In this document: piece after piece, positions 37,430 to 47,383 of the stretch
Position numbering within the stretch: the stretch's first letter is position 1
Layout: every line of letters starts with the position of its first letter
Source of the DNA: Bacteroidota bacterium
Lineage (GTDB): Bacteria; Bacteroidota; Bacteroidia; Chitinophagales; Chitinophagaceae
Assembly (NCBI GenBank): GCA_023391015.1
Contig: JAEWBT010000047.1
Location: 8,119-72,118, forward strand
DNA: 64,000 bases
Direction of reading: 5' to 3'
The notes under the pieces: model-generated
The model's input: the letters and a program-made list of their open reading frames with translations, nothing else
Told to the model about the DNA's origin: nothing
The model's database searches: none
Program-made: the position numbers and the translations under genes

Positions 37430-38167
37430 ATGGGCCACCCATCTTATCAACCAATAACAAACACAACTACCTGCCGGCTTCGTACCAAGCGCCAACGCCG
37501 GCGGGCACTTCTTGAAGACCGCGACAAGCAGCTTTTAAAGCTTGACAGAGAACACGCGCGCCTATGGGAGCAACGTAACAACCTGCCGTGGATACCGTTA
37601 GAGCCGCCTGTAATACGCGGCTGGAAACGCAGTTTTGTCCTTCGCGACGACGTCGCACGCCATAAAGACGCGCCGATGTACGAGCGGATTTTGAAGTGTA
37701 TCAATGAGGTTCAGTACAGCCACCGCCGCGACTTTAAAAAGAAGAAACGGAGCCGAGGCCGAAAAATTCACGTCGTGCGTGACCAGCAACTCAAACGCCT
37801 CGATAGCTGGGAATGGAACAAATGTGCGTTCACGCCGGAAGAAGCAGCTCACTTTGAGCTGGTGGAAAAGGTATCTTATCCGTGTGGTGCTGTTACCTAC
37901 CGCTACGTGTTCCGCGAATCCTGGCGTTTTGTTCTGCGTATCCAGCCGAACATCATCTCCCGAACCCGGCAGTACGACGCAAATCTGGAAGCCGAAATAA
38001 AAGCGATTGACAACTATCTTGACCGCACACAACAGCGTAACCGATTAAACAAGCTGCTACACGGCAGAAGTTGGAACTGGAAAAGCAGAAGGTCCGATGA
38101 TCTTCATTACACCAGCCGCCATCCCTTCCAGAATATTCCGCTCCACAACCTCTTAACCGAAGACTAA
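37430..38167 (+). CDS. basic hypothetical protein
   Basis: 245-aa ORF, Arg/Lys-rich but not low-complexity. First gene of the plus-strand RNA-repair operon. Confidence 0.5.
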   Translation: MGHPSYQPITNTTTCRLRTKRQRRRALLEDRDKQLLKLDREHARLWEQRNNLPWIPLEPPVIRGWKRSFVLRDDVARHKDAPMYERILKCINEVQYSHRRDFKKKKRSRGRKIHVVRDQQLKRLDSWEWNKCAFTPEEAAHFELVEKVSYPCGAVTYRYVFRESWRFVLRIQPNIISRTRQYDANLEAEIKAIDNYLDRTQQRNRLNKLLHGRSWNWKSRRSDDLHYTSRHPFQNIPLHNLLTED

Positions 38168-38183
38168 ATAATCCCAAAATACA

Positions 38184-38288
38184 ATGCTCCTAACTATTAC
38201 CCTCAACCGCGCACCCGATACTGACTTGGGCTACCTGTTGCACAAGCATCCTACTAAAGTGCAGCAGGTAGAAGCAGGTAGACATTAA
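38184..38288 (+). pseudogene. 34-codon remnant resembling the N-terminus of bacterial Hen1 RNA 3'-terminal 2'-O-methyltransferase
   Basis: My own translation gives MLLTITLNRAPDTDLGYLLHKHPTKVQQVEAGRH*. The MLLTIT...TDLGYLLHKHP signature is, from memory, the conserved bacterial Hen1 start. Confidence 0.4.
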
Positions 38289-38326: not shown

Positions 38327-39046
38327 ATGATTACCGCTAAATACGGTAGGACTTATCATTACCCTTTCTCGCCGGGTACCTCCTCCGACGACCGTATTCA
38401 ATACGATTACTGGCAGCATATACAAGGCATGTCCACCCTGCTGCACACTGAGAAGTTGGATGGTGAAAACAACTGCCTGAACCGCTACGGTGTCTTTGCC
38501 CGCTCACACGCCGCACCTACTACATCACCTTGGACGGCAGCCCTGCGGCAACGTTGGGAAAGCTTAAAGCACGACCTAGGCGACCTGGAGCTTTTTGGCG
38601 AGAACCTGTATGCTGTTCACTCCATAGAATACTACCGCTTGGAGCAGCACTACTTCGTCTTTGCCGTGCGTTGTTTGGATATGTGGTTGAGTTGGGAGGA
38701 AGTGCAGTTTTATGCTGCTGCATTCGACTTTCCTACAGTGCCACTGTTAGCACAAACCAGCGACTTTCAGAACGAGGCCACCTTTAAAGCAACAGTATTG
38801 TCGCTTGCTGCGCAACGAAGCGGATTTGACTCCCACGATGTGCAAAGCGGTAAGTCTTGTACACGCGAAGGCATTGTGAGTCGAAACAGCGATGCCTTTC
38901 CCGTGGCGGCACTCGGCGAAAATGTATTTAAGTACGTACGCAAAGGGCACGTGAAAACCGACGCGCATTGGACGCGTCACTGGAAACGCGCCCGCCTTAT
39001 TCACGAACAAAAACCTGGCAGCCATGGAACCAATTCTTTCGAATAA
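38327..39046 (+). CDS. ATP-dependent RNA ligase (PF09414/Rnl-type nucleotidyltransferase)
   Basis: Motif I TEKLDGEN (KxDG), motif III LFGENLY, motif IV REGIVSR, motif V FKYVRKGHV. Confidence 0.75.
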   Translation: MITAKYGRTYHYPFSPGTSSDDRIQYDYWQHIQGMSTLLHTEKLDGENNCLNRYGVFARSHAAPTTSPWTAALRQRWESLKHDLGDLELFGENLYAVHSIEYYRLEQHYFVFAVRCLDMWLSWEEVQFYAAAFDFPTVPLLAQTSDFQNEATFKATVLSLAAQRSGFDSHDVQSGKSCTREGIVSRNSDAFPVAALGENVFKYVRKGHVKTDAHWTRHWKRARLIHEQKPGSHGTNSFE

Positions 39047-40130
39047 AGACTGGAACAATCTCCTGCAACGCTATGCGTGGGTTCGGGACATGGAAGGTGT
39101 GCCGCAAGACCCTCGTCACCATGCGGAGGGGGATGTGGCTACGCATACTCGTATGGTGCTGGATGCACTTGTCGGCTTGCCTGAATATCAAGGCCTTAAC
39201 CCGCATCTGCAAGAGGTGATTTGGATAGCCGCGCTGCTGCATGATGTAGAAAAACGCAGCACTACCTTTCGCGAGGAAGACGGCAGCATTGTATCGCCCG
39301 GCCACGCCAAGAAAGGGGCACTCACTACACGGCACATCCTGATGACAGGACTGCCGGTGCCTTTTGCCACACGGGAGGCCATTGTAGGATTGGTGCGCTA
39401 TCATGGTCTGCCGCTTTGGGTGATGCATAAGCCCGATCCGCAAAAAGCTTTGCTCGCCGTTTCGCTCGCCGTCAATACCGAATGGCTGGCGATGTTGGCT
39501 AAGGCCGATGTATTGGGCCGCATCTGCACAGATAGGACAGAGCTGTTGGAGCGGATTGAATTTTTTGAGGCCTATTGCAAAGAACAGGGTTGCTGGGGCA
39601 CTGCCTATGCTTTTGCGAGCGACGCAGCCCGCTTCGAATATTTTCATAAGGAAGGCGGCAGTCCGCTCTACAAACCCCACGAGGCGGCTATTTGCGAGGT
39701 GACGATGCTCTGTGGCCTGCCTGGTATGGGCAAGGATTTTTACTTCCGTCAGCATTGTCCCGATCTGCCCGTGGTAAGCCTGGATGCTATCCGCCGTGCG
39801 CACAAGCTCAAGCCTGATGATAAAGCCGCCACAGGCTGGGTAGTGCAGCAGGCAAAGGAAGCAGCACGCGTACACCTGCGTGCAAAGCAGAATTTTGTGT
39901 GGAATGCCACCAATATCACCCGTCAGATGCGTAGTCAACTCATCGCACTCTTTGCAGATTATGGCGCGCGGATAAAGCTGGTGTATGTAGAAAAGCCTTT
40001 CCACACCTGGCGGACGCAGAATGCGGAGCGGGAACATGTCGTTCCGATTAGCGTACTGAATAAGCTACTGAATAAGCTGGAAGTACCTACGGCGGATGAG
40101 GCGCATGAAGTAGTTTACTGGGTGGCTTAA
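39024..40130 (+). CDS. HD-domain phosphohydrolase fused to a P-loop (AAA_33-type) polynucleotide-kinase-like domain
   Basis: HHAEGDVATH...ALLHDVEK (HD motifs). Walker A CGLPGMGKD in the C-terminal half. Confidence 0.7.
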   Translation: MEPILSNKDWNNLLQRYAWVRDMEGVPQDPRHHAEGDVATHTRMVLDALVGLPEYQGLNPHLQEVIWIAALLHDVEKRSTTFREEDGSIVSPGHAKKGALTTRHILMTGLPVPFATREAIVGLVRYHGLPLWVMHKPDPQKALLAVSLAVNTEWLAMLAKADVLGRICTDRTELLERIEFFEAYCKEQGCWGTAYAFASDAARFEYFHKEGGSPLYKPHEAAICEVTMLCGLPGMGKDFYFRQHCPDLPVVSLDAIRRAHKLKPDDKAATGWVVQQAKEAARVHLRAKQNFVWNATNITRQMRSQLIALFADYGARIKLVYVEKPFHTWRTQNAEREHVVPISVLNKLLNKLEVPTADEAHEVVYWVA

Positions 40131-40277
40131 TCAAAAAGTGTCCTCGCGGTTTTGAGACGTGGGGACACTTTACTTTATACCGTCGTGGGTTCCTACATTT
40201 AAGCAAGCTGGAAAATCATGTTAGCTTGCTTTCCTTATAGCCGATCAATATTTCTACAGATACGCTGAAAGGAAATC

Positions 40278-41123
40278 TTAGGCGACTAGATATTTTTCTA
40301 CCGGAAGGCAGGGTATTCTCTCCACCTTCCGGTAGGAATCTGTCGTGTAAATCGCATCCACGCCAGGTATTTCAATGCCTTTGCTAAAAATACCGTGGCT
40401 TACAATAAGGACGATGGTTTGCGCGCCTTTCGCCTTAAGCATCTGCGCGGTACCCGCGAAAGTTCCACCACCGTCGCAGATATCATCTACGATAAAGCAG
40501 GTCTGGCCGCTGAGGTCTTCTGTCGTTGTTTTAAAAGAGGTAAGCGCACCCGTCTTGAGGTCACGTTCCTTCATACACTCCACCACATTGTCTACGCCGA
40601 GATAGGCAGCGAGTTTATGGATCTTTTTTAGTGCGCCCGCGTCCGGCGAAACAAGGCAATAGTTATCAACGGTATGTTTCGTTTGATAATCCGCTATTGC
40701 ATCACGAACGAACAGATGGTTGGGCACTGCGTAAGACCGATCAATCAGCGCCGTGCTTACTTCTGAATGCGGGTCAAAGATTTTCACCTTTTTAAAGGCA
40801 GCCGCATTGAGCATAGTGGCAATCACCTTAAGCGAAAAGGGCTCGCCTTCCAGCATCACCCTGTCCATGCGCGCAGCCAGCAGATAGGAGAGATGGAGTT
40901 CTATGTGTGTGAACTCCAAATAATCCAGCGTGTTCTTCGCAAATAATAAGAGCAACAAATCGGCTGCGTTAGCCGTTCTGGCCAGAATACGGATGGGGAC
41001 TGTTCGGTCCATGTTTTCCAGACTAGCCATATCTATTTTCAGATGAGGCTGACCGTCGGGAAAGATCATTGCTTGGTAGTGCAGGTCAGAATGCTCCGGG
41101 TAGATGAGGTTGAGGGTTTTCAT
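40278..41123 (-). CDS. ribose-phosphate pyrophosphokinase homologue (Prs-like; alternatively Adps-like)
   Basis: 281 aa. PRPP-binding loop CFIVDDICDGGGT and an N-terminal Prs-like domain. Confidence 0.8.
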   Translation of the reverse strand: MKTLNLIYPEHSDLHYQAMIFPDGQPHLKIDMASLENMDRTVPIRILARTANAADLLLLLFAKNTLDYLEFTHIELHLSYLLAARMDRVMLEGEPFSLKVIATMLNAAAFKKVKIFDPHSEVSTALIDRSYAVPNHLFVRDAIADYQTKHTVDNYCLVSPDAGALKKIHKLAAYLGVDNVVECMKERDLKTGALTSFKTTTEDLSGQTCFIVDDICDGGGTFAGTAQMLKAKGAQTIVLIVSHGIFSKGIEIPGVDAIYTTDSYRKVERIPCLPVEKYLVA

Positions 41124-41854
41124 TTGTTGCGGCCTTTTTCAGTGGGATAAAACTGTTTTACTGTATCACTCTGCCAATACTGTTTGGTGTCGGCATCCAG
41201 CGCCGACAGCTTCCCATAATAGGCGGCTCCCGTGTCTAGATTCCACACGTTGCATCCTTGCATGGGCACTTCAATACCGTAGTTCAAAGTCGGTGTGTGG
41301 CCGATAAAAATCTCCTTAAAAAGCAGTAGCTGCCGTGGATAAAGTTTAGTTTCTCCACGTATATAGCTATCCTTTTCCAAAGCCATATTCCAAAGTGTGC
41401 GGTCTAAGAAAAAAGTACTTTCATGGTATTCTTTCGCTGGGCCATCCATAGAGCAAAAGCCCCCATGAATGAAAAGCCGGTTTTGCTCATCTACATAGTA
41501 GTTGTACAGGTTTTGGAAGAACTCCAAATGTGCTGTCCGTCGCGAATGGCTTAGTTCAGAATAGCTTGCTATTGTTGCTTCCCCTCCGCTGTTGAGCCAC
41601 ACTTTTTGTGGCGTTTCTCCCCGCAACCAACTCTCGCACCAAATGTCATGATTGCCGCGGATGAAGATGCAGTTGTGCTTCTTTTTCAGCGCTATCAGAA
41701 AATCTATCACTTGCGCCGACTGAGACCAGCCGTCTACGTAGTCTCCAAGAAATATGAGACGGTCATCAGGAGAAAGACCAACACGGTTAATCAACTGCTC
41801 CAACGCACGCAGGCTGCCGTGAATGTCGCCGATAACAAGAGTTCTTGGATTCAT
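41120..41854 (-). CDS. calcineurin-like metallophosphoesterase (lambda-phosphatase/PrpE type)
   Basis: VIGDIHG, FLGDYVDGW and IRGNHD motifs. ATG at 41854 preferred. Confidence 0.8.
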   Translation of the reverse strand: MNPRTLVIGDIHGSLRALEQLINRVGLSPDDRLIFLGDYVDGWSQSAQVIDFLIALKKKHNCIFIRGNHDIWCESWLRGETPQKVWLNSGGEATIASYSELSHSRRTAHLEFFQNLYNYYVDEQNRLFIHGGFCSMDGPAKEYHESTFFLDRTLWNMALEKDSYIRGETKLYPRQLLLFKEIFIGHTPTLNYGIEVPMQGCNVWNLDTGAAYYGKLSALDADTKQYWQSDTVKQFYPTEKGRNK

Positions 41855-41864
41855 AAAAGGAAGT

Positions 41865-42416
41865 CTACGCAACGTCCGTGCTGATGTACTGTGATGGTAC
41901 GGCATCCGTCAGCCAAACACCGTTTGCAGACAGGAAAAACTGGTATCCTTCCCGGTGCATATCGCCGCTCTTGACGGTGAGAATAATGGGCTTACCGCGC
42001 CGCTGCCCAACAACTGTAGCGGTGTCTTGGTCCTTACTCAAATGCACATGCTGGCGACTCATTTTCCGGATGCCTTCTTTCCGAATTGCAGGAAGCACAG
42101 CTCCTACCGTTCCATGGTATAAATGCTCAGGCGGCTGCTGCGGGATGAGACCTAGCTCAACATCTATGGAGTGTCCCTGACTCGCTCTGATTTTTGTTTT
42201 ATCCTCATTGAGCGCAAAGCGTTGTTTAGCATTCTCCCGGACTATTTCCATCAGTTCATCTGACGAAAGTGGATGGCCATGGGCTGCCATTTTGCGGAGC
42301 AATTCAGAGACGTCAGCCCAGCCTTGATCGTTTAGCTGTAAACCAATTGTTTCCGGTTTATGCCGGAGGATGAGGCTGAGAAATTTGCTGGTTTGAGTGG
42401 TTTGTTGCGGAGTCAT
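41865..42416 (-). CDS. kptA: RNA 2'-phosphotransferase Tpt1/KptA
   Basis: SKFLSLILRHKPE...DQGWADVSELL...RASQGHS...LYHGT family signature. 183 aa. Confidence 0.85.
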   Translation of the reverse strand: MTPQQTTQTSKFLSLILRHKPETIGLQLNDQGWADVSELLRKMAAHGHPLSSDELMEIVRENAKQRFALNEDKTKIRASQGHSIDVELGLIPQQPPEHLYHGTVGAVLPAIRKEGIRKMSRQHVHLSKDQDTATVVGQRRGKPIILTVKSGDMHREGYQFFLSANGVWLTDAVPSQYISTDVA

Positions 42417-42453
42417 TTGGGATGGATTGAGAAGAATGTTCTGAAGTCCCTTC

Positions 42454-43944
42454 TTAATAAGAATGAGCTGCTAGTCGCTGCGCTAAATCTTCTATATCAT
42501 TTCTCCTTGCCAAGACGGCTATCCATGTCGCCGGTATGCTTTCGCAGCCATATAAAAGTCCTGCTAGTCCACCCGTAACAGCAGCGGTTGTGTCTGTATC
42601 GCTTCCCAGGTTTACGGCTTTCAGGACCGCATCGCTGTAGTTATCGGTTGTCATCAGGCACCACAAGCTCGCTTCCAAGGTGCTCAGTACATATCCATTT
42701 GAGTTCACCTCAGTTTCTTGTGCTTTTTCAATCGCTGTAAAAGAGTTGCTATCGGTAGGGTTGTGCAGAATACGGCGGAACTTCTTGCATTCTGCTTCTG
42801 GACAATCAGGATGTGCGTCTAGAAAAGAGCTGACCTCAGTATGCAGAAATTCTAACGCTGCTGTTTTTGCTGCGCCGGAAAGGAGCTGGATCGCGAACTC
42901 TGTGTAGATGAAACAAGCGATGATGGACCGGATGTGACCATGGGTGAGTGAAGACACTTCCCGTACGTGTTCAAAGCGCTGGGGCATCGGCAACTTCTTT
43001 GTGTAGAAGATCAGCGGCAGAATGCGCATCAGCGAGCCATTACCATTGCTGTCTTCATCGCTTCCGCCCGCAAGCACAGGATTACACCCACGTGCTAGCT
43101 CACTGATAGCAGCGGAGGTGGCGATGCCAATGTCAAACACCCTTCCATGCGCCGACCAATGTCCGTATTTCTTCCATTTGACAAAGCGGTTTGCCAGATT
43201 TTGAAGATCGTAACTGCCGCACAGCATTTCCGCCAGGCAGAACGTGAGGGCGCTATCATCTGACCACGTGCCTGCTTTCTGCTGGTGTGTGCCATACGCG
43301 CGCATGTTGGTTACAGGATTGTAGCGGAGTGCTTCTCTTGAAACAAACTCCACCGGAACTCCCAAAGCGTCACCAACAGCAAGGCCGAGTAAAGCGTCTT
43401 TTACAGGATTGCGTGAACTCTTCGCTGTGATCTGTTCTTTAAGCAAACGCTCATAAATGCTGTAATTCTCGTCGTCAAAGCAAACAAAAAGAATGCGGTT
43501 AAAAGCATCAGAAGGCTTGAAGTTTCTTACGGCTTCAAGGGCTATTACAGCAGCTTTTTCTTTTGGAAAATGATAAATGCCGGTGCTGATATTTGGGAAA
43601 GCAATGGTCTTAATTCCATTCTCTATCGCAAGTTGTAAGGAGTTCCTATAACAAGATGCGAGCAGCTTAGCTTTTTCTTCTTTGTCGCCATTCCAAACTG
43701 GTCCGACTGTATGTATGACATACTTCGCGGGAAGATTTCCACCCGTAGTTATTACAGCGTCACCCGTAACACATCCACCCTGTCGGTCTCGGATGCCCAT
43801 GCATGCTTCAAGAATAGCAGGTCCACCTTTTCGGTGGATAGCTCCGTCAACACCACCTCCGCCAAGCAGAGAGCTGTTAGCGGCATTTACGATGGCGTCA
43901 ACTGACAGCGTTGTAATGTCTGCTTTGATGAGTTCTATGTTCAT
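42454..43944 (-). CDS. macro domain fused to ADP-ribosylglycohydrolase (ARH/DraG family)
   Basis: N-terminal part: [29 protein letters not shown] (macro). C-terminal part: [14 protein letters not shown]...[16 protein letters not shown] (ARH). Confidence 0.85.
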
Positions 43945-44495
43945 TGTTCTTTTAGTTTATCACGTACTTCCATTAAAGCATATCCCAGCAAGTTTTCGCC
44001 ACGCCAGTTTGCCGGATGATGAATCTGCGGATGGTCTGCTGCCATGCCTGTTCCCCAAATGGCATCTACTGGACTAGCTTCAACGATAACTCGATCTGCG
44101 GTACTCAACAGGTACATCTTCAGCGATTCATGCTGACTGAACTTCAGGTAATTTCCGGAAATCACGATTTCATTCTTTTGCGTTTCCCAGAGACTAGGAT
44201 CAAAGTCTTTTACTGCACGCCCAAGTTCTTTTGCTTCTGCAGGCGTCTTCGCAGTAAGTATGTGTGCAAGCGTATCAGCATCGCCGAAAAGCCGAGCTTT
44301 ACCAGCCATCATCCAATGCTCGGCAGTAGGGTAGATCTGTCCATCTTCCCGGAATGGAGAGCCTTCCCACCATTGGCTAAAGCAGGACGCTGTGATGCTA
44401 CCATCTTTAGAAGGACGGTGGCCCCAGAAGAATAAGTATTTTGGTTGACGGCCTTCCTCAATCTGAGCAAGCAGCCACTTGTTGCTGTATCTCAT
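43941..44495 (-). CDS. NADAR (YbiA/DUF1768) family protein
   Basis: FFWGH...CFSQWW...[16 protein letters not shown]...[12 protein letters not shown]. Confidence 0.8.
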
Positions 44496-44905
44496 GACTT
44501 GAATTTTTGCAGAATTGCTGTGAGTTCATTATCGTCAGGTAGAGTTGCTCCTTTCCCTGAGAATGCATTAACCACCCTAATGCAGCCAATGATTTGATTG
44601 TTGAATTCCTCCAAATCCTCCGCTGGTATCCAAAGCTCATCATGTCCATTATTGCCTACATTTTGAACAGGGTATTTTGATAGAAAGGAAGTCTCCAAAT
44701 CAAAAGCTGTTACTACGCCCCAATAGTCGCCAAAGGCGTCTGCGGTATTCCACTCGCGTGCGATTTGCTCTGCATAAGCTTGATGGATCACCGGATAGAA
44801 AATGGGTTGCCAAGCAAGCCGGGGAGGAAAGCGCTTCCAGCCAGAATGCTTAATAAGCGCCAGTTCCTTCAACCCGACGGGCCGGTACAGTGTTTTGCAG
44901 TTCAT
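44492..44905 (-). CDS. conserved hypothetical protein in the NAD/ADP-ribose operon
   Basis: 137-aa ORF with a 4-bp overlap with the NADAR gene. Its start lies 56 nt inside the nadV 3' end. Function not recognised. Confidence 0.5.
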   Translation of the reverse strand: MNCKTLYRPVGLKELALIKHSGWKRFPPRLAWQPIFYPVIHQAYAEQIAREWNTADAFGDYWGVVTAFDLETSFLSKYPVQNVGNNGHDELWIPAEDLEEFNNQIIGCIRVVNAFSGKGATLPDDNELTAILQKFKS

Positions 44906-46382
44906 GGGCCAGATTTGTTTTTATCCGCTCCCGGATTTCCGCAAGCGTTGTTTCTAAGAGCAGCTTCCCATCTCGGAAAACGGTCTTTAATTCCTCCTGT
45001 GCTTCCTCTTCCCAAGTGCAACTGTCTTTGAGGGCCAGCTTCCCGGTTTGTGCGTCTTTGTACACTTGTAGCAGTCCTTTGGCGGAAAGCTTCGTACCGT
45101 CGTCGGTCTTCGGACTTTTAAAAATGTCACGGCCTTCCCCATTTACCTCGCCGTAAGTGGCCTTCATGGCAAAGCCAAAAGAGTCACGCGTTACGTATTC
45201 GTAGGTGAAGGAACCAAGACCGAGGATGACATTATAACTGGCAAAGCCTTTCTGCTTTAATCCTTCCAGAATAGCCTGCTGCCGTTCGGGAGTAATGCCA
45301 TCACCGTAAATCAGTCCTACGTGACTGTCCAGCAGCTTGTAGCCTTGTGGGGTAGTGGTTCCGCCAAAGGTTTCCCACATGCATTCAATCACGCCTTTGT
45401 GTTCCGGACTGCCGGATGCGGCGGCTGCATCGCCAATGATAATTTTCACTGGATCACCACTGTCGGGGCGAATGACCACCTTACCCTCCCGGGCGAGAAT
45501 AACGTCTTTCAGCTTTGGTAAAAACTCCGTGATGACCTGCCAGAAATCCCAGGTATCGCTCACGATAGAGACAATGCCTTTAGGATAGACGTCTGTAATG
45601 AGGCGCTCAAACGTTTCCATCTCGGCGCTTGCCGTGCCCATGCACATTACGCTATGTTCCGTAGCTGGTACAGAGCCTCCAACCAGTTCCCGTTCACAGT
45701 CCGCGCCATAGTATTCCTCTAAGAAGTCAATGGCTGGAATGGTATCGGTGCCGGTGAAACAAAGCAGATGACCCGCACCGCTCATTAGCGCGTCTTCAAT
45801 ACCACTCATTCCACGAAAGGAAAAGTCGTGACCCTGCCAAGGGACAAAGCTCAGATCCTCACCCACCGTATCAAGCGCGTAGCAGGTAAAGGTTTTGAGG
45901 TAATGGTAAGCAGTTGTAGCAGAGGTACAAGGCTTCCAGAGAATGGCACTAAGGAGCGTTTCTAACGCATTCGTCAACCAAAAGAATTCCGGAACCGTGT
46001 TGCGAATCGTGAAGACTGGAACTTTCATCGGCACGAGGGTGCCTTCGGAGAGTGCCTTAATTTCTAAGGGCAGATAGCCGAGATCATGTAGCGCACCAAT
46101 GTGGTCATAGGGAATGCTGTCTTTGCCCAGATAGTTGTCTATGCGGCGGGCATAACGACTCAGTACATCTTCCTTGGGCTGTTTAAAAAAGTGTTCGTTG
46201 AACTGGCGGATGAGATACTCCTTGATGAAGTATTGCAGACCGAAAAATACCACTTCGGGCATTTCCGAATTGCGCGATTTGCGCGGTGTGAGGTTGGAGT
46301 AAACCAAGGTGGTGCCTTCGGGATACTGAAATTTATGGCCGACTTTATAGCCGTCTTTCAGCAGAATGGGGAGGATGTTCAT
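44850..46382 (-). CDS. nadV: nicotinamide phosphoribosyltransferase family protein (NadV/NAMPT; alternatively Namat-like)
   Basis: MNILPILLKDGYKVGHKFQYPEGT... is a typical NAMPT N-terminus. 510 aa. Confidence 0.85.
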   Translation of the reverse strand: MNILPILLKDGYKVGHKFQYPEGTTLVYSNLTPRKSRNSEMPEVVFFGLQYFIKEYLIRQFNEHFFKQPKEDVLSRYARRIDNYLGKDSIPYDHIGALHDLGYLPLEIKALSEGTLVPMKVPVFTIRNTVPEFFWLTNALETLLSAILWKPCTSATTAYHYLKTFTCYALDTVGEDLSFVPWQGHDFSFRGMSGIEDALMSGAGHLLCFTGTDTIPAIDFLEEYYGADCERELVGGSVPATEHSVMCMGTASAEMETFERLITDVYPKGIVSIVSDTWDFWQVITEFLPKLKDVILAREGKVVIRPDSGDPVKIIIGDAAAASGSPEHKGVIECMWETFGGTTTPQGYKLLDSHVGLIYGDGITPERQQAILEGLKQKGFASYNVILGLGSFTYEYVTRDSFGFAMKATYGEVNGEGRDIFKSPKTDDGTKLSAKGLLQVYKDAQTGKLALKDSCTWEEEAQEELKTVFRDGKLLLETTLAEIRERIKTNLAHELQNTVPARRVEGTGAY

Positions 46383-47065
46383 GACACTTGAATATGGAGT
46401 GAAAAGGCCGCTTTTTTAAGCGCCTTATTAAAGCGAAACAATTCAGGGTGACGGTTCTTCCCGCCTTCTCGTTTCATTCCTGTAGCGGTGATGTACTCTG
46501 CTTCCAGAATCTTACGGGCGAAGTTTCTTCGGTCAATATCTGTGTTTAGAATGCACTCGTAAAGCTGGTGCAGCTCACTCATGGTAAACAGCTCGTCTAG
46601 CAGTTCAAAGCCCACCGGGAAGTAGAGAATCTTAGACCTCAGCCGTTGAAGCGCGACATTGAAAATCTGTTTGTGGTCAAAACCTAGTTTCGGCAACTTG
46701 TCTATTTCGAACCACTGCACATCGTTAGCCATTGTTCCGACAGTTACTCTAAATCGCTCCGGATTAATGAGCGCGTAATAGCTCACCGAGAGCACGCGTC
46801 CGCGCGGGTCACGGGCCGGATTGTCAAAGGTGTAGAGCTGCTCCAGATAAAGCCTGGAGATGCCAAGCTTGGTGTGCAGGACACGCGTGCAAGCTTCGTC
46901 CAGCGTTTCTTCCATTTGCAGAAAGGCACCAGGCAGCGTCCAAGTGTTTGCAAAGGGTTCCTCCTTCCGGTTGAGAAGAAGAACGGAAAGCTTGCGCTGA
47001 TTATAGCCAAACAAGACCACATCGGCTGCAAGCGCCGGATTCTTGTATGCGCTGAATGCCTTCAT
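46379..47065 (-). CDS. nrtR: Nudix-related transcriptional regulator NrtR (degenerate Nudix box + C-terminal winged helix)
   Basis: LPGAFLQMEETLDEACTRVLHTKLG (Nudix box lacking REx2EE), RDPRGRVLSVSY, LGFDHKQI, and a C-terminal RRNFARKI wHTH. ATG at 47065 preferred over the upstream TTG. Confidence 0.7.
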   Translation of the reverse strand: MKAFSAYKNPALAADVVLFGYNQRKLSVLLLNRKEEPFANTWTLPGAFLQMEETLDEACTRVLHTKLGISRLYLEQLYTFDNPARDPRGRVLSVSYYALINPERFRVTVGTMANDVQWFEIDKLPKLGFDHKQIFNVALQRLRSKILYFPVGFELLDELFTMSELHQLYECILNTDIDRRNFARKILEAEYITATGMKREGGKNRHPELFRFNKALKKAAFSLHIQVS

Positions 47066-47069
47066 TTTG

Positions 47070-47090
47070 TTTGTGTATATTTTACACAAA
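47070..47090. promoter_or_regulatory. 21-bp palindrome, candidate NrtR operator
   Basis: TTTGTGTA-tattt-TACACAAA, ending 5 bp upstream of the nrtR ATG at the head of the 8-gene minus-strand operon. Confidence 0.4.
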
Positions 47091-47249: not shown

Positions 47250-47260
47250 GATTTTACTGG

Positions 47261-47306
47261 GTCGGGACGACTGGATTCGAACCAGCGACCCCATGCACCC
47301 CATGCA
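47261..47306 (-). repeat. att direct repeat within the intact tRNA-Pro
   Basis: Identical to 537-582. Confidence 0.85.
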
Positions 47307-47335
47307 TGTGCGCTACCGGGCTGCGCTACGTCCCG
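47262..47335 (-). tRNA. tRNA-Pro (anticodon GGG)
   Basis: The reverse complement is CGGGACGTAGCGCAGCCCGGTAGCGCACATGCATGGGGTGCATGGGGTCGCTGGTTCGAATCCAGTCGTCCCGA. It folds by hand into a cloverleaf: 7-bp acceptor stem, anticodon loop AUGGGGU, T-loop TTCGAAT. Confidence 0.9.
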
Positions 47336-47383
47336 AAACTTTCCGGTAATGGGCGGCGAAGATAAACAACTTTTCCGGAAATT

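Follow-up and report, generated by a model that had tools for sequence, protein, structure and literature searches.

Does bacterial Tpt1 (KptA), the NAD+-dependent RNA 2'-phosphotransferase, work together with an RNA ligase cassette that is encoded beside it? The question is raised by positions 38327-42416 of a 64,000-nucleotide stretch of contig JAEWBT010000047.1 from a Bacteroidota bacterium (assembly GCA_023391015.1), and this whole stretch is called the window here. An earlier note on this DNA had described a KxDG-type ligase overlapping an HD/P-loop-kinase fusion (HD-Pnk) on the plus strand, and a convergent lambda-phosphatase-type metallophosphoesterase directly after Tpt1. Both gene pairs are in place and intact, and the ligase and HD-Pnk open reading frames (ORFs) overlap by 23 nt. 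The note did not mention a fifth gene inside these coordinates, encoding an Adps-like enzyme, or the extension of the minus-strand operon to position 47089. We found that two separately conserved modules, placed tail to tail, meet with their ends at positions 38327-42416. The explanation we favor, with moderate confidence, is that these are two independent modules, namely a self-contained ligase/HD-Pnk cassette (LIG/HD-Pnk) and an NrtR operon for ADP-ribose and NAD+ turnover around Tpt1.

Neighbors of the ligase pair and of Tpt1

We surveyed 80 genomic loci carrying ligase homologues that were 63-70% identical, from Bacteroidota and from Escherichia, Serratia, Yokenella, and Superficieibacter. 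HD-Pnk lay directly 3' of the ligase in 78 of the 80 loci. Clustering of the flanking ORFs showed that the commonest neighbors of the pair were RtcB (45/80) and PrfH (20/80), and WYL regulators, an AAA/M41-peptidase protein, and a Ro-like protein were each found in 10-12 loci. The pair also occurs alone, as a bare two-gene unit between emrB and luxS in approximately 1000 of 5426 complete E. coli genomes and as standalone ligase/HD-Pnk pairs in genomes G018 and G189. The proposal of the earlier note that the two genes form an end-healing and sealing cassette agrees with the literature: this module is the already published LIG/HD-Pnk heal-and-seal cassette of Runella, Deinococcus, and E. coli, and it is self-contained. 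The ligases of Enterobacteriaceae (L080, L082, L030, L035, L037, and L054) were 64-68% identical to the window ligase. Because they are about as close to it as the Bacteroidota ligases are, the comparison points to horizontal movement of the cassette between phyla.

A different set of neighbors accompanied Tpt1. Among 400 other sampled Bacteroidota genomes, PF01885 was found in 23 (5.75%), and 20 kb was fetched around each match. Genes of NAD/ADP-ribose operons surrounded Tpt1 in 12 of these 23 loci; counted within 10 kb, they comprised NrtR (11 loci), NADAR (10), ARH (10), the metallophosphoesterase (9), an Adps-like gene (9), and Namat (9), while the ligase pair was near Tpt1 in a single locus. 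Wherever the metallophosphoesterase was near Tpt1 (9/23), it was always on the same strand and downstream. Because it accompanied the ligase in only 1/80 loci, we assign the metallophosphoesterase to Tpt1 and the NAD+ enzymes and not to the ligase pathway in which the earlier note had placed it. A Namat-type gene of at least 61% identity was present in 15 genomes, of which 11 carried Tpt1, compared with 23/400 overall. Thus, in the sampled Bacteroidota, Tpt1 mostly lies within an Adps/Namat operon under NrtR control, flanked by its other genes, and a closed NAD+ cycle is therefore suggested.

The two gene sets do meet at some loci. Besides this window and Runella, Tpt1 was located within 10 kb of the ligase in 4/80 loci (L039, L016, L059, and L071). 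Our own estimate of the chance expectation, calculated as 5.75% prevalence × 20 kb / approximately 4.5 Mb, is approximately 0.02 of the 80 loci, and the observed proximity exceeds it. Of 50 ligase-bearing genomes, 19 (38%) had a Tpt1 gene at some position, versus 5.75% of the sampled Bacteroidota, and both ligase carriers within the 400-genome sample possess it. The PF01885 search detected no Tpt1 in the other 31 of the 50, including all 14 Bacteroides/Phocaeicola genomes, the E. coli representative, and E. ruysiae. A survey of this kind had been suggested in the earlier note. The linkage that it anticipated does extend beyond this locus, but it is not typical of the ligase family, and an obligatory route through a 2'-phosphate junction, as proposed there, is unlikely because Tpt1 was not found in 31/50 carriers.

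In metagenome-assembled genomes (MAGs) of Tannerella, Dysgonomonas, and Prevotella, Tpt1 lies inside a co-directional ligase array with the order orf245-like gene, RtcB, (metallophosphoesterase), PrfH, AAA/M41, Tpt1, (macro-like gene), (orf137-like gene), TatD, ligase, and HD-Pnk; one of these three Bacteroidales MAGs also has a metallophosphoesterase adjoining RtcB. A Ferruginibacter MAG shows the same convergent layout as the window. We also observed that L016:1077-11887, L059:1362-12588, and L071:2522-10958 are 10- to 12-gene co-directional arrays, with an AAA+/M41 FtsH-like gene and a macro-like gene or DUF4291, that look like an extended ribosome/RNA repair super-operon. Taken together, the modules are linked, facultatively.

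Genes of the two modules and the island that carries them

The ligase gene (38327-39046, plus strand) encodes a minimal ATP-dependent RNA-ligase-type nucleotidyltransferase of 239 amino acids, the LIG of LIG/HD-Pnk, which matches PF09414 (RNA_ligase) with an E value of 6.6e-28. We retrieved 2674 homologues. Across 20 aligned homologues, motif I, K43-L-D-G-E-N (KxDG), was invariant, and motifs III (F90-G-E92-N), IV (E181-G-I-V-S-R), and V (K202-Y-V-R-K) were invariant or nearly so; the window ligase therefore has motif I followed by III, IV, and V in the order characteristic of the ATP-dependent RNA ligase superfamily. In searches against the PDB, the single sequence gave no match, and a 20-sequence profile gave only chance matches to picornavirus VP2; these searches yielded no placement of the ligase in a named Rnl1-5 class. 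The adjoining HD-Pnk (39024-40130, plus strand; 368 amino acids) is predicted to combine an N-terminal HD phosphoesterase with a C-terminal P-loop 5'-OH polynucleotide kinase. The Pfam HD match at residues 38-131 was weak (E value of 3e-3), and AAA_33 matched at 226-355 (E value of 9e-24). Residues H33, H73-D74, H94, H127, and D162, the P-loop G234-x-G-K-D238, D254, and R257 were at least 97% conserved among 76 homologues. In its domain order and length, its conserved HD metal ligands and P-loop, and the overlapping upstream ligase ORF, the protein corresponds to Runella-type HD-Pnk, and its relatives from Spirosomataceae (L045 and L084) are 52-53% identical to it.

On the minus strand, eight genes extend to position 47089 in the order NrtR, Namat, orf137, NADAR, Macro-ARH, Tpt1, metallophosphoesterase, and Adps-like gene, of which only the last three lie within 38327-42416. 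The Tpt1 gene (41865-42416) encodes 183 amino acids and matches PF01885 over its full length (E value of 1.8e-52; 178.4 bits against a cut-off of 26), and its score to the NCBIfam equivalog is 264.8 bits against a cut-off of 239. It is 54% identical to Runella Tpt1 (PDB 7KW8, E value of 5e-56), and the catalytic Arg-His-Arg-Arg set of that enzyme (R16, H17, R64, and R119; PMC6097658) is kept as R18, H19, R66, and R121. These results support the assignment of the window protein as an orthologue of the biochemically proven Runella enzyme. The metallophosphoesterase ORF (41120-41905; 261 amino acids) shares 41 nt with the 3' end of the Tpt1 gene. Its product is of the lambda-phosphatase/ApaH/Pnkp type, matches Pfam Metallophos (E value of 4.5e-19) and the NinI-like phrog_246 of the lambda phosphatase type (E value of 3e-41), and retains the motifs GDIHG, GDYVDG, GNHD, and GHTP. 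Among NCBIfam families, it had weak similarity to ApaH, PrpE, and the phosphatase domain of Pnkp.

Two further genes of the operon resemble the NARP1 enzymes. Namat, the nicotinamide ADP-ribose transferase of NARP1, is encoded at 44850-46382 (minus strand). The window protein matches SPbetaL1 Namat (PDB 9W5X/9W5W) with an E value of 2e-177 and 58% identity, compared with an E value of 4.5e-71 to human NAMPT. In addition, the adenine selectivity clamp (R40, F392, Y396, T398, R399, and D400), whose residues define the use of ADPR-PP (PMC12774641), is fully conserved (R37 in the window protein and the segment G-S-F-T-Y-E-Y-V-T-R-D). Identification as an ordinary NAMPT was rejected given the far better Namat match and the intact clamp. 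The last gene of the operon (40278-41123, minus strand) encodes an Adps-like protein of 281 amino acids, a putative ADP-ribose pyrophosphokinase with the PRPP-synthetase fold. Its score to phrog_619 is 241.8 bits, compared with 247.9 for the proven SPbetaL1 Adps and 160.5 for the canonical Prs of the genome, and it falls far under every NCBIfam Prs equivalog cut-off. The protein is 34% identical to SPbetaL1 Adps and 25% identical to the canonical Prs (319 amino acids, contig C62). Loss of the C-terminal module is a signature of Adps (PMC13586617), and the shortness of the window protein is consistent with a missing C-terminal (alpha11-alpha12) module, as judged from length and hidden Markov model (HMM) comparison. 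Because of the clamp and structure matches of Namat and the phrog_619 score, the length, and the failure at the Prs cut-offs of the Adps-like protein, we read the NrtR operon as holding a NARP1-type pair, adps and namat, 3.7 kb apart, with the identity of Adps somewhat less secure than that of Namat. In 9 of the 23 surveyed Tpt1 loci, both genes were within 10 kb of Tpt1.

The first gene, encoding the Nudix-related regulator of NAD metabolism NrtR (46379-47089, minus strand), matches Pfam NrtR_WHD (E value of 4.6e-21) and NUDIX (E value of 2.9e-10). A 21-bp palindrome, TTTGTGTAAAATATACACAAA (47070-47090, minus strand), just upstream of nrtR is a candidate NrtR operator; it is unique in the window, where 0.04 occurrences are expected by chance. 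Palindromes of the form TTTGTGT-N7-ACACAAA, some degenerate, precede nrtR in L087, L088, L089, L091, and L104. The exact core of the window palindrome was not found in any fetched locus, where only degenerate versions occurred. Macro-ARH (42454-43944, minus strand) is a MacroD-type macro domain (E value of 5.8e-49) fused to an ADP-ribosylglycohydrolase (ADP_ribosyl_GH, E value of 1.2e-73) and scores above the cut-off of the NCBIfam O-acetyl-ADP-ribose deacetylase. Next to it is a YbiA-type NADAR, a predicted ADP-ribosyl hydrolase (43941-44495, minus strand; Pfam NADAR, E value of 9.4e-53; TIGR02464, 167.8 bits), whose start is overlapped by 4 nt by orf137 (44492-44905, minus strand). The 137-amino acid product of orf137 has 3633 homologues and no Pfam domain, and its AlphaFold2 model (pLDDT 94) suggests a minimal ADP-ribosyltransferase fold. 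Foldseek matched it to the RhsP2 toxin domain (7RT7, E value of 4e-3, TM 0.50), to C-terminal domains of Tpt1, and to CC0527. The closest match, RhsP2, is an RNA-ADP-ribosylating toxin domain, and the position of orf137 beside a YbiA-type NADAR recalls the YarT-YbiA toxin-antitoxin pair. Homologues of orf137 recur in Tpt1 operons (L087, L088, L104, L016, and L039), and a paralogue is present on contig C99.

Phages carry related arrangements. In the crAss-like phage cr111_1 from human feces (L086:5992-8687), a 143-amino acid ORF lies between Namat and an Adps-like gene; this ORF was considered as a counterpart of orf137 and rejected, as the two share no similarity. The N-terminal half of phrog_12872 (547 amino acids) matches the Adps-like protein and its C-terminal half matches Namat, indicating that Adps-Namat fusions occur in phages. 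Among bacterial relatives, we observed decayed copies of operon genes (L109:7920-8452, L089:10537-11261, and the Namat genes of G436, G133, G224, G364, and G189): a TGA interrupts Tpt1 in G224, L089 has a split metallophosphoesterase gene, and the Namat genes of the five genomes contain in-frame stops. Judged from these sequences, the NrtR operon is decaying in some lineages.

Upstream of the ligase lies orf245 (37430-38167, plus strand), which encodes a basic protein of 245 amino acids with 85 homologues. It had no match in Pfam, PHROG, or NCBIfam, and its AlphaFold2 model (pLDDT 87.5; core > 95) had no fold match in the PDB (best TM 0.14). Homologues were found in 9/80 ligase loci; they are immediately 5' of RtcB in L016, L059, and L071 and open the RtcB-PrfH-...-ligase-HD-Pnk arrays of the Tannerella, Dysgonomonas, and Prevotella MAGs. 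The protein is probably an uncharacterized RNA-repair accessory protein. Between orf245 and the ligase is a 34-codon remnant of Hen1_L, the N-terminal, ligase-activating region of bacterial Hen1 (38184-38288, plus strand; PF12623 positions 1-31, E value of 6.3e-10; 39 bits against a cut-off of 23). It is the sole Hen1_L match in the genome, which contains no full-length Hen1, and is probably a relic of either a replaced Pnkp/Hen1-type cassette or a lost Runella-like methyltransferase partner. The 34-amino acid remnant had no match near other ligase loci, and the possibility that Hen1_L regularly accompanies the ligase was rejected, as it is present in 3/50 ligase-bearing genomes.

Both gene sets belong to the cargo of a 46.7-kb mobile island integrated at tRNA-Pro and lie at its far end, since a 46-bp direct repeat at 537-582, the left att copy, exactly repeats 47261-47306, the 3' part of tRNA-Pro(GGG) (47258-47336, minus strand; ARAGORN), and a Bacteroidota-type tyrosine integrase (752-1972; Pfam Phage_integrase and Arm-DNA-bind_5) is encoded just after the left copy. 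The other island genes include a type I restriction-modification system, giant helicases, and a WYL regulator. The 147-nt gap between the convergent operons contains two hairpins, read from the sequence at 40137-40169 and 40201-40231, with the arms AGTGTCC/GGACACT and AAGCAAGCT/AGCTTGCTT; they are likely terminators, and a consensus terminator scan called neither of them. The source genome is a 2.87-Mb assembly that is 87% complete. An intact ligase is rare among its relatives (1/40), and the same-genus relative G008 has a ligase remnant of 27 codons and no related DNA otherwise. A near-identity DNA search with 38327-46382 against phages, plasmids, and E. coli gave no match.

A proposed mechanism for the two modules and its rivals

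Starting from the gene identities, the catalytic residues, the Namat clamp, and the neighborhood statistics, all of which are shown by the analysis, we infer the following mechanism for two separate modules, including each reaction of the cycle, what the metallophosphoesterase acts on, and any transfer of RNA from one module to the other. In the ligase module, HD-Pnk would phosphorylate 5'-OH ends and remove 2',3'-cyclic, 3', and 2' phosphates, and the ligase would self-adenylylate and then seal the breaks, so that in most genomes the cassette would work without Tpt1. In the NrtR operon, Tpt1 would spend NAD+ to remove a 2'-phosphate from RNA, the metallophosphoesterase would open the Tpt1 product or remove its phosphate, and the macro domain would complete the conversion to ADP-ribose. 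The Adps-like enzyme could then form ADPR-PP from ADP-ribose and ATP, and Namat could combine ADPR-PP with nicotinamide, restoring NAD+ at the cost of ATP. NrtR would sense ADP-ribose, and a rising level would induce the operon. We consider cooperation of the two modules to be facultative.

Several points weigh against such a clean separation. The enrichment of Tpt1 in ligase-bearing genomes and its place inside the Bacteroidales arrays mean that the modules are not fully independent, and the survey counts ignore phylogeny. The activities of all proteins of this locus are predictions. The metallophosphoesterase resembles the Pnkp domain that acts as an RNA-end phosphatase as much as it resembles ApaH/PrpE, and it may therefore act on RNA ends. 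The Adps assignment is based on HMM scores and length, and five genes separate Adps from Namat here, while in phages, according to the literature, Namat is an immediate neighbor of 97% of Adps genes. A tighter coupling can also be drawn, in which a closed ATP-driven NAD+ cycle of Tpt1, the metallophosphoesterase, the macro domain, Adps, and Namat is joined to LIG/HD-Pnk, which would supply or consume the RNA ends of Tpt1 because the ligase needs a 2'-phosphate. We regard this coupling as unlikely. If it were true, 2'-phosphates could be stripped from damaged RNA many times over without draining NAD+, and the locus would be a bacterial counterpart of Trl1-Tpt1-Cpd1-Poa1 with cofactor regeneration, giving a job to both bacterial Tpt1 and chromosomal NARP1.

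The earlier note had taken the island for one complete repair pathway, whereas we found two modules that are mostly apart. Such a single, eukaryote-like pathway would require that HD-Pnk, perhaps with the metallophosphoesterase, heals cut tRNA and leaves a 2'-phosphate, that the ligase seals only such ends, and that Tpt1 clears the junction. In its favor, the Runella ligase self-adenylylates and sealed no tested 3'-OH/5'-PO4 substrate, and participation of Tpt1 has been proposed (PMC6097658); furthermore, Tpt1 and the ligase are linked in the window, L039, L016, L059, L071, and Runella, and the frequency of Tpt1 in ligase-bearing genomes (19/50) is well above its background. However, 31/50 carriers lack a detectable Tpt1, and in E. 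coli only the pair itself is inserted between emrB and luxS. According to the published work, the HD domain acts as a 2',3'-phosphoesterase (PMC6097658), and a 2H cyclic phosphodiesterase was not found among the window ORFs scanned. Moreover, the metallophosphoesterase keeps company with Tpt1 and the NAD operon and not with the ligase, and the two sets of genes converge as distinct transcription units. The HD domain reportedly also removes 2'-phosphates (Munir and Shuman 2017). We therefore consider the single pathway improbable; a yeast-style 2'-phosphate route is possible, yet most relatives of these genes point elsewhere.

The metallophosphoesterase and Tpt1 might instead heal 3' ends before ligation, the former opening a 2',3'-cyclic phosphate to a 2'-phosphate and the latter removing it at the expense of NAD+, after which the end would pass to the ligase or RtcB. 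This is a model of the Aravind group, stated in PMC9503650, and it would fit the resemblance of the metallophosphoesterase to the Pnkp phosphatase domain, its adjacency to Tpt1 in many loci, and the presence of Tpt1 within the RtcB-PrfH-ligase arrays of three Bacteroidales MAGs, one of which has the metallophosphoesterase beside RtcB. On the other hand, such healing would duplicate the HD domain of HD-Pnk, and 12/23 Tpt1 loci have no RNA ligase, RtcB, or kinase within 10 kb but do have NAD/ADP-ribose enzymes. Removal of a terminal 2'-phosphate is said, in work of Munir et al. from 2019, to be a property of some Tpt1 enzymes only. We regard pre-ligation healing as doubtful. A somewhat stronger, still minor, chance is given to the possibility that the NrtR operon is unrelated to RNA repair and is a counter-measure of the mobile island against NAD+-depleting or ADP-ribosylating attack, in which NARP1 rebuilds NAD+, Macro, ARH, and NADAR erase marks, Tpt1 and orf137 are writers or decoys, and the adjacency of the ligase is clutter. 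NARP1 is a proven anti-defense pathway in the literature, the island is rich in defense genes (the type I restriction-modification system, the giant helicases, and the WYL protein), and NADAR, macro, and ARH enzymes undo the ADP-ribosylation of nucleic acids (PMC11833690); the RhsP2-like fold of orf137 and its YarT-YbiA-like position beside NADAR point the same way. This explanation leaves the strong and specific inclusion of an intact Tpt1 (11/15 Namat-bearing genomes) unaccounted for, and the same operon type occurs in sampled genomes without recognized ligase or RtcB neighbors.

Two separately conserved modules thus remain our preferred explanation. The survey weakens the case for viewing LIG/HD-Pnk as a ligase system of the yeast type that requires Tpt1, as most carriers have no Tpt1. 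It offers a useful negative result, that the cassette does not need Tpt1, and a testable idea, the closed NAD+ cycle. In addition, the locus and the related operons connect two questions, namely on which natural substrate bacterial Tpt1 acts and why bacteria keep a chromosomal NARP1.

Comparison with known systems

The closest published cluster is that of Runella slithyformis (Tpt1, MTase-HIT, LIG, and HD-Pnk, where MTase is methyltransferase), in which the ligase ORF overlaps HD-Pnk and Tpt1 and MTase-HIT lie just upstream (PMC6097658). The Runella ligase formed ligase-AMP but sealed none of the tested 3'-OH/5'-PO4 substrates, and Munir et al. 2018 (PMC6097658) suggested that Tpt1 might be part of a new repair pathway. 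The window shares the minimal ligase ORF overlapping the start of HD-Pnk and a nearby Tpt1 orthologue (54%); the orthology of the ligase and HD-Pnk to the Runella proteins is deduced from the architecture and from the Spirosomataceae relatives L045 and L084. Unlike in Runella, the window Tpt1 does not precede the ligase in the same orientation but lies in a convergent NrtR/NARP1-type operon, and the place of MTase-HIT is taken by no gene other than the 34-codon Hen1_L remnant. Deinococcus radiodurans is likewise described as having an operon of a ligase (DRB0100), an ADP-ribose hydrolase (DRB0099, PARG), and an HD/kinase fusion (DRB0098) (PMC11833690). There, the macro-type hydrolase lies between the other two genes, whereas the ADP-ribose enzymes of the window are in a separate operon. 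The emrB-luxS cassette of E. coli also consists of overlapping ORFs, with a ligase 68% and an HD-Pnk 55% identical to the window proteins, but has no Tpt1, RtcB, or NAD genes nearby. As for the RtcB-PrfH module and Pnkp-Hen1, RtcB and PrfH are the commonest neighbors of the pair elsewhere and a Hen1_L remnant lies upstream here; however, neither RtcB nor PrfH is beside the window pair, the RtcB of the genome is on another contig, and Hen1 is reduced to 34 codons.

The NrtR operon is comparable to phage NARP1/NARP1-AP (Adps, Poa1p-like macro, and Namat), with which it shares a clamp-intact Namat, a short Adps-like PRPS homologue, and a macro domain. According to the literature, a Poa1p-like macro phosphatase, which converts ADPR-1''P to ADPR, is frequently encoded in the NARP1 operons of phages. 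The window operon differs in being bacterial and, by prediction, NrtR-regulated, and in having Namat before Adps, which is the last gene, with five extra genes including Tpt1 between them. A review (PMC8120803) describes Tpt1 in NAD/ADP-ribose operons without RNA genes, and our literature search found no paper naming both NARP1 and Tpt1/KptA. In fungi and plants, the corresponding proteins are Trl1 (ligase, kinase, and 2H cyclic phosphodiesterase), Tpt1, Cpd1, and Poa1. By analogy, the window encodes a ligase, a kinase, a phosphoesterase, and Tpt1, and its macro domain could play the part of Poa1; in contrast to Trl1, its ligase is a nucleotidyltransferase domain of 239 amino acids only, its phosphoesterase is HD and not 2H, and the ligase family does not obligatorily co-occur with Tpt1. 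Among these parallels, the ligase pair is already known as the published cassette and the yeast-like pathway as the hypothesis of Munir et al. 2018 (PMC6097658), while the newer point is the coupling of Tpt1 to NARP1.

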